A DNA stretch of 64,000 nt, taken from positions 1,118,276-1,182,275 of the forward strand of contig MU057344.1 of assembly GCA_013239625.1 (NCBI GenBank), written 5' to 3'. Positions 34 through 59,500 of the stretch are shown here, piece by piece; positions within the stretch are counted from its first letter, which is position 1, and each line of letters starts with the position of its first letter. The position numbers and the translations under genes were made by a program. The DNA is from Lama guanicoe (Eukaryota). The notes beneath the pieces are model-generated. The model saw only the letters and a list, made by a program, of their open reading frames with translations. It made no database searches and was not told the origin of the DNA.

Positions 34-277
34 TCTCCATCGACTCCATCCAGGAGGTGAGCGAGGGGCGGCAGTCAGAGATCTTCCAGCGCCACCCCGA
101 CGGCAGCTTCGACCCCAACTGCTGCTTCAGCATCTACCATGGCAGCCACCGGGAGTCGCTGGACCTGGTCTCGCCCAGCAGGGACGAGGCGCGCACCTGG
201 GTCACCGGCCTACGCTACCTCATGGCCGGCATCCGGGACGAGGACAGCCTAGCGCGCCGCCAGCGCACCAGGGACCA
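34..277 (+). CDS. PLCH2: PLCH2 exon (PH domain, ISIDSIQEV...RQRTRDQ), 244 nt
   Basis: Acceptor CAG 31-33; ends at a non-GT donor ATATCCTT (278-285, U12 type). Confidence 0.93.
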
Positions 278-3200
278 ATATCCTTGGGCGCAGGGCAGGC
301 CCCAGGACGGGCACCCCTGTCCAGCGCGGGTGGGGCTCCCGGCCCTGGCTGGCCCACGGATCTGGGGGCGGGGCTCTTTCCTGCCCGGGGAGAGGGGGGT
401 GGCGGCCCTGCTGGACCCACGTTGGCCCCTAACTTGGCCCCAAAGTGGCTGAAGCAGACGTTTGACGAGGCCGACAAGAACGGGGACGGCAGTCTGAGCA
501 TCGGCGAGGTCCTACAGCTGCTGCACAAGCTGAATGTGAACCTGCCCCGGCAGAGGGTGAAGCAGATGTTCAAGGTGAGGCTGGTGGGGCTGCCCGGGGC
601 CGAGGCCCAGGGATACTGCGCAAGCGAGGGCACCTGGGGCGCAGCTGTGTGTGTCCAGGAGCAGCTGGCCCGGTCCCAGCTGCAGCAAGGGGCGGGGGAG
701 GCAGCTCGGCCAACCATCCTGGGCCTCGGGGGGCGGGCGGTCGGATGCCCCAGGCTGCCACCTCTTGCAGCTGTGCAGGCACCACTGTAGCGGCTCCCAG
801 GGCCTCCCCAGGCCAGTGGCCATCTGGGCAGGCACGGGGTCAGTGAGGGAAGCCACCCACAGGAGGCTGCACCCCTTTCCCGCCCCTCCTACAGCTGCCC
901 GGCCGTCGTGGGCTGCACCGGCCCTGCCCTGTGGGCCGCAGCTCCAGTTTCCCATCCCCGGAGCCTCTGGCCCCCAGCTACCCTGGTGTGAGCACCTAGG
1001 AAGACACATCCGTTAGCTGAGCAGCAGCCCTTACTGTCTGTGATCAGCTTGTCTCGTTCTGGAACCCTTGCTGGAACGGGGGTGGGGGATGCGCGATGCT
1101 GTGTCAGCGGATCCCCGTTCATGGGACTCGGCCAGCAGACCCTGCTCTCCGTCCTCGCTTGTCTTGCTGCTGCCTGGAAAGAGTGTTCCGTGAGCATGAC
1201 CCAGGCCCCACACCCCGACACACACACACGCACGCTCGCTTGCACACACAGCCAACTGCTCCACCGGGCGTGGCCCCTGGAGGCTCCCTCCTGTGCTCTC
1301 ATGATGGGCAGAAGGTCATGCTCAGCTGCTCTGAGCCTCGGGTCTGTGTGCACACGGTGGACTGTGCGGAGGAGCAGGATGCTCTCAGACTGCTGCAGCA
1401 GGACTGGGCTGGGGCTCGCAGGGCCCCTCCTGGAGGCCCCAGGGAGCAGAGCCTGTCTGGGCAGTGAGGAGCAGGCAGACGGCTCAGGCCCACAGAGCAG
1501 CCCACCAGTTCCCTGCCTCCCCTGCCTCCAAGGGCAGCTGTGGGGTCAGCAGCCCCTTCCAGGCCTGTGAAGCTGTGCTGGGCAATAGGCTGTCTTAGGA
1601 CCCGGGGCTCAGATGAGCCTCGGAGGCAGGATGAGAGATGAGGGCCCCTCACAGAGAGGGTGTGAGCCCTTGCTGCCTCCTGGGGCCTGAAGGTCCACTG
1701 TGAAGTCCTGGCTTGAACATGCCCCCTTGGGGTGGGTGTAGCTCAGCGGTAGAGTGCGTACTTAGCACACACAAGGTCCTGGGCTTAATCCCCAGCACCG
1801 CCATCTAGAAAAGAGGGGGAAGCAAATAAACCTAGTTACCTCCCTCCTGCCCCCTCCCCAAAAGTGGTGGAGGTGTTAGTGACGGAGTCTCGACTATGCT
1901 GATGGTTTCACCGGTGCAGACGTCTATCGAAACGCATCAAGTTGTACCTCTGAATTATGTGCAGCTTACTCTGCAGGACTCATGCCACAGTAAAGGTATT
2001 AGAAAATAAATAGCGTGGGAAAAAAGAAAGAAAGAAAATGCCCCCGGCCGGGAGCCCTGGGAAGCCCCTGCCCCTCCTGTGAGGAGGCTGGACTTCCTTC
2101 TCGTGCGCTGTCTAGGCACGGGGGGCTCCCTCAAAGCCCTCTGACCAGCTCCAGGCCTGGCTGTGTCTGGGCTGCATGCAGGCCACCTGGAGGAGGCCTC
2201 TGGGACCTGCAGGCGGGCCAGCTCAGAGCCGGCCCCCGAGAGGCGCGAGCAAGGGCCTGTTGGCCAGGAGCTCCTGACCCCAGACCCTAGGCAGGCGTTG
2301 TCCCCGGTGGCCCCAGGTGCCTAGGCCTCCCTGCCCGTGGGCATGGCTGCCCCTGCAGACACTCTGGAGCCCAGGGACGCAGGGGAGACCTCCAGCCGGC
2401 CAAGTGGCTCTGATAATTAGCATCAATTTTATTGTCGAGAAATCTCAGTATCGTTCCCCCTGCCTTGAGCTGCCTAATCAAAGGAGAGGTCACTGTGGTG
2501 GGCAAAAGGGCGTAATTTTGTTAAGTCTAAAACCCCAGTGCGGGGGAGGCGTGGCCTAGCCTGGCCCTGGCCCTGGCCCTCACCCTAGTGGGTGCCCTGG
2601 GCCGGCTCTGAGCCCAGCTCAGCAGAGCGGCTCCGGCCGGTGGGTGCTTTCAGCCGTGGCGGTCTCCTTTGTGGGGAGAAGAGCGCAGAGCCTGTGGAGG
2701 GTGTTTCTGGGGCTGAGGGGCCAGGTCCGTCCTCTCGGGCTCCTGGGGGCCTCTCATCACAGAGCATTTTGAGTCGCCGCCTCGGACGTGCCGCTTGCAG
2801 AGCCCAGTGGGAGGCCGGGGCGGCCTGCGGGCATCTCTGCCCAGCTCCAGCCACGGCCCCCGGGGAGGGCTACCAGCCCGGTTCTGTCCCAAAGAGCCCT
2901 TGACCCTCAGTGAGGGCCCTTCCCTGTCCATCCTGCCAGCTCTTGGACACAGGGCTGCCCTCAAACCTGGAATGGATACTGGGGTCCTTGTCTGGCCTCT
3001 GCTGGGCCCTGGAGCAGGTGGCTGTGGGCCAGCCCCTCCTACCACCTGGCCCTGTCCCAGCCTCAGCACGGGCACCTGGAGAGGGCACTCCGGCCCTGGA
3101 GTGAGACGCTGGGGTCCTGCTGGGTGCCCACCTCAGTGCCAGGCCACAGTGCGGGGCAAAGATGGCAGCCAGGAGCGCCTTCCAGGGCTGGCCTTCCAGG

Positions 3201-56505: not shown

Positions 56506-59500
56506 GCCCCACATAAAGGCCGGGCCGCCAGCTGCTCTCCCACAAAAGACTCCCAGCCTTTCAGGGCCTGGAGACGGGCGGGGTGAGCAGAGGCACGGCC
56601 ACAGCCTACCTGGCCACCCCCAGGCACCGCCCGCGGCCACAGGGGCAGCGCCTGCCCGCTGACCGCTGAGGGCCCTGGAGGTCCCCAGGGCTGGGCGCTT
56701 GGGAGAGTCTTGCACAGCCACCCAGCCCGGCCACCTGCCCCTCCCCGCCACTTGCCCAGGGCTGGCACAGCTCCTGGGCCTCCCATCTCCCGGCACACGG
56801 CACACGCCCCACGCCCGCCAGCCCCTCCCCCGCAGCTCTGGCCTCGCCTCACTTCCCAGCCCCCAAGCCCGCCTGGGCCGCTCTTACCTCCCGCTTACAT
56901 CTACCCCTCACTGCCCCCCGCCCCGCCCAGTCTGCCACACGGTGCAGACCGCAGGACGGGGACGTGGGGAGGGCGGAGGGCTGGGCAAAGCCTCCTTCCC
57001 GGGGACCTCAGCTTCCTTATCTGAGATGTGGGACAGCACTGCCACTTTCCTGGGCCAGTCGGAGAGCTCCCTAAGGTTAGCTGTCTAAAAATACCGGGTC
57101 CTGGAGAAGCGGGAGGCCGGCAGGACCCCTGCCCCCAGGAATCAACTGCCCAGAACGCATCTGATGATGACCTTGTAATACGGGGACCAGCCTGGGGGAG
57201 GGAGGGGGAAGTCAGGGGAGCTTCCTGGAGGAGATAGCAGCTGGGGTCTGGCTTCTCAAAAGCGGGGGGAGGGTGGGAACGCTCAGGGGCAGAGGCTCTG
57301 GCTGACCCCTCTGCGCAACCCTGCTGGTCAGGACCCTCCTCTGATTCAGCTTGTGTCTCCACGCTGCCCTCACATCTTGGATGGCCCCTGCAGCCAATTT
57401 TGTCACCCACTGAGAATGGCCAGGCCCAGCAGGTCCCCTGGCTAGGATTGCTCTTGGTCATGTGTGAGGAGCTGGAGACGTTCATAGGCGGGACCAAGTG
57501 TGTCACCGGTGGACAGGCTGGTGGTGATCAGAGTGGCCGGTGGGGACACCTGTCTGGAGGACAGGAAGGTGGTATCAGCGAAGGAGCTGCCCTGGATTCT
57601 GACCCCCCAGGGAGGACACCACCCCAGGCCCTGCATTCTGGGCAGGTGGCTGGACCATGTGGCAGTAGGGGCGGGTACCACAACCCCGCCCACAACCCCC
57701 GCTGAGGGTGGAGGCAAGTCGTTACCCGAGCCCACAGCCTCTGCCATCAGGAGATTTGTCCAGCTCTGGCCGCCGACTGGCTGCTGGATCAGGGAGGCAC
57801 ACTTGCCCTCCACCTCACTGCCGCCTCCTTCACTCTCGTGGCATAAAGGCACTGTCACCGCCGCCTTCCTGCCACCCTCCTACACCAGGTGCTCCAGCCC
57901 CTCGTGCCCGGCAGCAGGTGTGGCCCCCTGAGTAGCCCCAAAGTGAACCCCGATCAGGGTCTGTGAGACAGAGGCGCAGGGGCGGTCCGGCAGGGTCCAG
58001 CGGACGCCCTGCCACCGCTCCGCTCTCCCTCCTGTTTGAGAAGTTTGCGTGGCGCCAACCCAGCTCCAAACTGGGGAAGGGAGATCGGGGAGATGGAGGC
58101 GGGACTGTCCAGGGTGAGCGAGGCGCCGGCCTGGTGGGGTCGGGGCCCTGTGGCCCGTGCTACCCTCCAGCTCCCCTGGCGCCGCCGCTGCCTTCACCGT
58201 CCCCGCTCTCTCCTCGCAGCCTCTCTCCCCCGCCCCCACTGCGGGTGAGTCCGGGTATGGCTTCAGGGAAGGTGTGGTGCCTGGGAGAAGCCTTCCCGAC
58301 CTCTCCCTTCACCAAGTGAGGATGGAGACTCAGGCAGAACTGAAGCTTGCAGAACGCCCCACCCTGCCCCCGCCACCCCAGGTCAGCGTGCTCGTGCAGC
58401 CCCCTCCCACAAGGGTCCAGCTGAGGCCCCGGTGGGGAGTTTGCCAGGCCCCTTGGTCCTAAAGGAGAGGGCCTGGGCTGGCCAGCCACTCCCCTTGAAG
58501 AAGGGAAAGTGTTTCCCCTCCTTTTCCTGAACAGGTGGGGCCGTCAGTGTGGGCCTTGCCAGGTCTTCACTTTGAAGGAGGGGTCCTGGGACAAGAACTT
58601 TGTACGTTACAAAGGCCGTAAGTGGCCGAGATTGTCTGTGGTGGGGGTGGGGTGGGGCAGCGCCTCGGCGGTGCTGGTGTGTCGGGAGGGCACCTTGCAG
58701 CTGGACCTCTGCTTCTCCCAGGCTGGGACGGATGGATACTCTATGTTAGAGCCAGAGCCGGGTGGGGGGTGCTGTGCTTCTGAAGGGCGTGGCCGCCTGC
58801 TGGACACTGGCGGGGGTGTGGTACAGGGGAGCTCTCCGGGGGATCGGTCATGGTCAGTGTCGGACGTGCGGGGCACATACAGCGTCTGCCTCAGAGGTGG
58901 ACTATGTAGGGCTTGGATAAAGTGCTGGTCCGCAGACTTCCCCTGGGTCTCCGCCCGGCCCCCAGCGGAGCACCACCCCGAGATTCAGGGTCCCTGCCCA
59001 GTGCATGGGAGGGATCTGGGCCTCCTTAGGTGGGGCACCGTGCCAGGATATCGTGGGCTGGACCCCCGCCCTGGATGCCTCTTCCCTGGAACCGTGGTCA
59101 ATGCTCCCAAAGGGTCCCCTGGTCCCCAGTGACAAGGAAGACCCTCAGGACGCTCTGAGCCAGGGATAGCTAGTTCCCGCCAAGGCCCTCCTGGGAGGGG
59201 GCTCCCCTTTATGTGCGCCCCCCAGGGGCCAGGCAGTGTGCTAGATGCCCAAGTCATGGGTTCGGAGGCGGAAACGCCATTGTCCCCAGTTCACAGAAAA
59301 GCAGAATGGGACCCTGGTGACTCAGGCACCCTGCCAAGGACACACCGGGAGTTGGGGGTGGGCTGGAGCCCCTCAACAGTGAGGCTGGCCTCCTCTGCCC
59401 CCACCGTGCCCACCCCTCCTGGCTGCCCAGCAGAGCAAGGAGTGGGGCTCCCCAGCGTAGCTCTTCCTGGTCCCCCAAGTCTTGCCCTCCCACTTATTCC

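Follow-up and report, generated by a model that had tools for sequence, protein, structure and literature searches.

The guanaco PLCH2 gene carries, between the exons encoding the end of its PH domain and its first EF-hand, an intron with the rare terminal dinucleotides AT and AA, which we interpret, with a probability of about 0.85, as a U12-type intron whose removal by the minor spliceosome is an ordinary and mostly constitutive step of PLCH2 expression. The intron is already known, being catalogued in human and mouse, and AT...AA ends are likely in the guanaco mRNA as well, as predicted from the reading frame and the annotation of human RefSeq transcripts. The analysis covers a 64,000-nucleotide stretch of Lama guanicoe contig MU057344.1 (hereafter the window) and follows up a first-pass annotation of that stretch; the features discussed are collected in Table 1.

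Table 1. Features of the PLCH2 intron, its flanking exons and the paralogous PLCH1 intron (window positions unless a locus is named)
Feature	Position	Strand	Remark
PLCH2 exon, C-terminal part of PH domain, ending in split Gln codon (phase 2)	34..277	+	
A-type (AT-AA) U12-class intron, 167 nt	278..444	+	Sequence; human ortholog AT_AA and MIDB minor intron
U12 5′ splice site ATATCCTT	278..285	+	U12 consensus
Weak U12-type branch site CCCCTAAC	426..433	+	12-mer 423-434 identical to human and mouse
AAAG, candidate 3′ ends AA 443, AA 444 and AG 445 in succession	442..445	+	Only 444 keeps the frame
PLCH2 exon encoding first EF-hand	445..574	+	tblastn match 443-574
Out-of-frame TGA, reached via retention or AG445	450..452	+	More than 100 nt upstream of next exon junction
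PLCH1 intron of this genome	L002:1728 to L008:1499		G000:C6476:13689970-13697785

The PLCH2 locus and the signals of the intron

Camel PLCH2 (P0086) matches the window in 20 tblastn segments spanning positions 33 to 21,864, one of them covering the upstream exon (33-281, 97.6%) and 18 lying downstream of the first-EF-hand exon. The residues of the upstream exon are identical at 66 of 66 positions in four camelid records and at 59-63 of 66 in five other mammals, and these matches together support the gene identity assigned by the first-pass annotation. Direct reading places the upstream exon terminus at GAC CA (277) and the downstream exon start at a G (445) followed by TGG CTG AAG from 446, with an ordinary GT donor at 575, right after that exon. 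The next intron contains what appears by eye to be a tRNA-like SINE-type sequence (1730-1800). Parts of the window occur in 24 sequencing runs, among which RNA runs reach 0.33 of its words, and the camelid PLCH2 protein clusters are singletons with no transcript-derived member.

The donor ATATCCTT is the sole RTATCCTT in the 64-kb window on either strand, against an expectation of 0.11 per strand under an order-2 Markov model, and it sits exactly at the split codon. U12 signals were assessed through the published MIDB scores of identical 12-mers: the donor 12-mer (275-286) equals the human one, which scores 99.2, and the mouse donor scores 100. One other ATATCCT lies at 59051 on the minus strand. 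The putative branch site CCCCTAAC offers adenines at 431 and 432, of which we take 432, 12 nt upstream of the intron end, to be the branch A; this distance falls within the 10-16 nt seen in seven homologous introns. By itself the hexamer is unremarkable, with an expectation of 7 per strand, and the branch 12-mer, identical to that of human and mouse, scores 68.5, compared with 82.7 for PLCH1. Only TTGGCCCC separates the branch from the AAA of the CCCCAAA that closes the intron at 444, and the final 30 nt hold 18 pyrimidines in a C-rich stretch with no U tract, bearing out the earlier reading that a polypyrimidine tract is missing. Donor consensus, branch motif, absence of a U tract and the listings in MIDB and in Cologne 2019 all agree on the U12 class that had been proposed.

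The catalogue entries are explicit on position. Olthof 2019 (PMC6717393), in the MIDB data, lists the minor intron of PLCH2 for both human (205 nt; chr1:2479978-2480182, hg38) and mouse (186 nt; chr4:155006732-155006917). The human intron shares gene, position, donor and branch 12-mers and AT-AA ends with ours; the mouse intron shares gene, position and branch 12-mer, and the guanaco intron (167 nt) differs from both in length only. The supplement of de Wolf 2021 (PMC8280824) annotates the human intron as AT_AA on NM_014638.3, NM_001303012.1 and NM_001303013.1, and Table S3 of Cologne 2019 (PMC6800510) lists it as U12-type. The vast-tools column of that table also gives a second, longer PLCH2 intron (hg19 chr1:2411417-2418611) that runs from the same U12 donor over 7.2 kb to its acceptor, so that exons would be skipped.

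AT-AA ends are scarce even among U12 introns. The accessible part of Sheth 2006 (PMC1557818) counts three in human and four in mouse and describes them as often mis-mapped; PLCH2 is absent from its Table 3. The AT-AA introns reported there (RASGRP4, FLJ21106 and MSH3) resemble the present one in their AT-AN ends, U12 donor and a last base that varies from species to species. These features are likewise shared with the CENATAC-dependent A-type class of de Wolf 2021, where PLCH2 itself is put in the U2 group. Minor introns are reported in 60% of phospholipase C genes (PMC6865273, in part). Our search of main-text literature found no paper that discusses the PLCH2 intron or the PLCH1 minor intron, the listings being confined to supplements. 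The supplements of PMC11347168, PMC10853781 and PMC13049632 yielded no PLCH1/2 entry and those of PMC8034651 only PLCH1/2 expression rows; searched for minor-spliceosome dependence, the supplement text of these four sources and of PMC6800510 yielded no PLCH2 splicing row.

Established U12 biology suggests how the intron would be removed: U11 would pair with ATATCCTT and U12 with the weak branch CCCTAAC; the 3′ end would be set just behind the branch without the help of a pyrimidine tract, and 277 would be joined to 445. The available text of PMC8329584 describes conserved U12 sites, treats the pyrimidine tract as a feature of U2 introns and covers the proposal that minor splicing is rate-limiting.

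Choice of the 3′ end and the protein record

From the donor at 278, seven AA, AG or AC acceptors lie within 436-462, of which only 444 (AA), 453 (AA) and 459 (AC) keep the frame. The end at 444 is the only one to do so without residue loss, producing D-Q-W-L-K; ends at 453 and 459 lie 22-28 nt from the branch and would delete W-L-K, and we rejected them. A TA...AG cut (279-445) also keeps the frame and was set aside in turn: it breaks the U12 donor and contradicts the RefSeq label. The AT-AA assignment accords with the frame, with the human RefSeq annotation and with the protein records considered below.

The first-pass annotation had recognized 444 and 445 as candidate ends, correctly, and had overlooked a third, the AA at 442-443. 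It had also held that branch distance selects the 3′ end, a claim that proved too simple: ends at 443, 444 and 445 lie 11, 12 and 13 nt from the branch, all inside the 10-16 nt spanned by homologous introns, so distance is not the whole rule here. A contact between the first and last intron bases that tolerates an A-A pair would be the likely extra filter favouring 444 over 443 and 445.

As had been noted, retention reads into the TGA at 450-452. Use of AG445 stops at the same triplet, and use of AA443 shifts the frame to a stop at 463-465. Each of these stops is separated from the next junction by over 100 nt, with 18 exon matches beyond, so transcripts of this kind would be expected to decay under the usual 50-nt rule (PMC6717393, in part). 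We considered a special role for the TGA at 450-452 and discarded it, since this triplet is a by-product of the L and K codons and the V-K codons of PLCH1 yield the same TGA.

Among the best 120 of 1,531 protein matches to the PLCH2 EF-hand exon, 59 read D-Q/W (the slash marking the junction), 32 are open through the end of the intron, 25 carry an insertion beginning with Y-P, three have residues missing and one begins at the exon start. The residue before W is K in all 32 read-through ORFs. Its codon includes the two final bases of the intron, where AC would encode T, AG would encode R and AT would encode M or I, so the intron must end in AA in each; these ORFs are 90%-identity clusters with near-identical exons, presumably from mammals, and do not represent 32 independent species. 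At the branch, 31 of the 32 read P-N and one P-D. All four Logan-only ORFs that join the PH domain to later domains without the intron read D-Q/W. They are 526-1,402 aa long, none of them camelid, and they probably represent spliced transcripts, because their contigs measure 1.8-4.9 kb and the PLCH2 gene 22 kb; like all protein records, they fit a 278-444 cut and a 279-445 cut equally.

The prediction that gene finders would mis-model this intron is borne out: within the same best 120 matches, 55 of 84 records from annotation sources read D-Q/W and 29 depart from this junction, including one Camelus dromedarius record. The commonest insert, Y-P-W, is the product of a forced GC288-AG445 intron, and the current C. 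dromedarius record reads D-Q-Y-P-W/W. The statement that the region offers no usable GT was too strong, in that open, in-frame GT-AG pairs exist (GC288-AG445 is likewise open and in frame, adding Y-P-W, and GT330-AG445 adds 17 aa); those donors are weak and not conserved.

Homologous introns and competing classifications

An intron with U12 signals occupies the same phase-2 position in PLCH1 of the same genome, where it spans 7,816 nt and ends in AA followed by G. Human PLCH1 has a U12 intron (chr3:155586195-155593940) at the same split Gln codon, with an ATATCCT donor, classed as U12 and AT_AC in the supplement of de Wolf 2021 (PMC8280824). The PLCH1 introns are much longer than that of PLCH2 (7.7-7.8 kb) and have a stronger branch, and they end in AC in human and in AA here; the guanaco PLCH1 end is possibly an independent C-to-A change. 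In the same genome, PLCD3 (L005, reverse strand, intron from 1716) has a 343-nt AT-AC intron and PLCD1 (L009, reverse strand, intron from 83) a 4,596-nt GT-AG intron, both with U12 signals at the same codon position. The two remaining paralog matches, which we take to be PLCL-like, read straight through this position.

A metagenome scan returned 80 loci, of which L010-L016 were inspected and L010-L013 used, the others being unrelated EF-hand matches. L010 (PLCH2-like, 93%) and L011 (PLCH1-like) both show AT-AC ends and a canonical branch, L013 (a distant PLC) has GT-AG ends with U12 signals, and L012 has an AG end, its donor lying outside the locus. Alignment of orthologs and paralogs, which had been put forward as a check, thus finds position and class shared by human, mouse, PLCH1, PLCD1, PLCD3, L010, L011 and L013. 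Eight read-through-like PLCH1 records among the best 120 of 1,326, counted after leaving out two odd gene models, carry T (4), M (2), K (1) or S (1) before the junction, suggesting that the last intron base drifts in PLCH1 and looks fixed in PLCH2. In most bird PLCH1 records (P0129-P0240) the split codon encodes H instead of Q, as it also does in PLCD3 here, so the opening base of the downstream exon tolerates substitution. Judged from these sequences, the intron would be older than the split between PLC-delta and PLC-eta, and its distribution among homologs, read with no tree, points to AT-AC as the older state; the last base would then have changed from C to A in the lineage leading to mammalian PLCH2 and been kept.

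Three other accounts of the intron can be weighed against this record. That it is a major-spliceosome (U2-type) AT-AA intron, which we regard as very unlikely, draws on the U2 A-type label that it bears in two supplement sheets of de Wolf 2021 (PMC8280824) and on the weak branch score (68.5 in MIDB). The donor, however, is a U12 consensus scoring 99-100 and not of U1 type, homologs at the same position bear U12 signals, and both MIDB and Cologne 2019 call the intron U12. According to the accessible part of Sheth 2006 (PMC1557818), U2 AT-AC introns need a U1-type donor, first base aside, and a pyrimidine tract; the PLCH2 intron has a U12 consensus donor and no U tract. The U2 label is likely a misclassification.

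Equally little weight falls to a true product made by the major spliceosome from GC288-AG445 (Y-P-W) or GT330-AG445 (17 aa). Both pairs are open and in frame, and 25 of the 84 annotated records, including Camelus P0099 and P0100, carry a Y-P insertion; yet the inserts vary in length by species, with 10 different endings, same-genus records P0086 and P0103 read D-Q/W, and the insert is found in none of the four Logan-only spliced-type ORFs. The contexts of the GC288 and GT330 donors also match the U1 consensus poorly. Least credible of all is an assembly error concealing a C at 444, and hence an ordinary AT-AC intron: such ends do occur in L010, L011, PLCD3 and human PLCH1, but the human PLCH2 ortholog is annotated AT_AA and all 32 read-through ORFs imply AA.

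Retention, decay and possible dependence on the minor spliceosome

Because its ends are A-type and its branch weak, the PLCH2 intron is somewhat likely to be CENATAC-dependent. In the supplementary data of de Wolf 2021 (PMC8280824), its retention is 0.53 in CENATAC-mutant lymphoblasts vs 0.068 in healthy cells (nominal p 0.011), at a base mean of 2.2 reads and with no adjusted p; the HeLa values are uninformative (base mean 0.08), and the PLCH1 U12 intron shows no significant change in these patient cells (0.125 vs 0.065, p 0.49). The PLCH2 intron sits among the U2 A-type controls of that study, yet shows a nominal rise in retention in the mutant cells.

The first-pass annotation had gone further, proposing that the intron throttles PLC-eta2 output by dividing transcripts between productive splicing and nonsense-mediated decay. 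We judge it unlikely that sluggish or inaccurate minor splicing diverts PLCH2 mRNA into decay in regulated proportion, whether by retention or by a one-base slip to AG445 or AA443. Several observations are in its favour: A-type introns as a class show higher basal retention (PMC8280824, in part), short minor introns are retained more (PMC6717393, in part), AT-AG outnumbers AT-AA by 11 to 3 among the non-canonical U12 introns of human (accessible part of PMC1557818), both one-base slips yield early stops, and the mammalian read-through ORFs keep the AA and sub-optimal branch, whereas the ortholog-like L010 has a canonical branch and AC. Against it, the supplements of PMC6717393 list 150 mouse minor introns for which every replicate of a tissue shows retention, with no Plch2 entry, and PLCH2 is likewise missing, for mouse and human, from the alternative events above 10%, although such steady-state lists could miss fast-decaying forms and a further 105 introns retained in only one or two replicates could include Plch2. 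Plch2 is absent from the retained list despite a high cerebrum expression value of 44.9, and the human intron is retained at only 0.068 in healthy cells (PMC8280824, in part). The outcome of retention is moreover not conserved, since intron length modulo 3 differs between species (guanaco 167 nt, human 205 nt, mouse 186 nt); retention preserves the frame in mouse (186 nt, 3n) and is in-frame and stop-free in P0012, P0014 and P0054. The proposed throttle is therefore unsupported, and keeps a small probability because steady-state data can miss fast-decaying forms. A more elaborate version, in which the weak branch and the AA beside a decoy AG make mammalian PLCH2 a tuned, slippage-prone acceptor, PLC-eta2 output is sensitive to CENATAC and U6atac, and the AA/G of PLCH1 is convergent, strikes us as slightly less plausible still. 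Were one-base slippage to prove both frequent and under regulation, disorders of the minor spliceosome would become connected to calcium signalling in neurons.

Constitutive removal of the AT-AA intron by the minor spliceosome remains our preferred reading, and its relevance lies mostly in annotation, in that some one in three of the annotated PLCH2 records considered (29/84) depict the junction differently, most of them with extra residues inserted after the PH domain and ahead of the first EF-hand. One homologous intron bearing GT-AG, AT-AC and AT-AA ends in the PLC-delta and PLC-eta paralogs of a single genome constitutes a natural series for the study of last-base choice.
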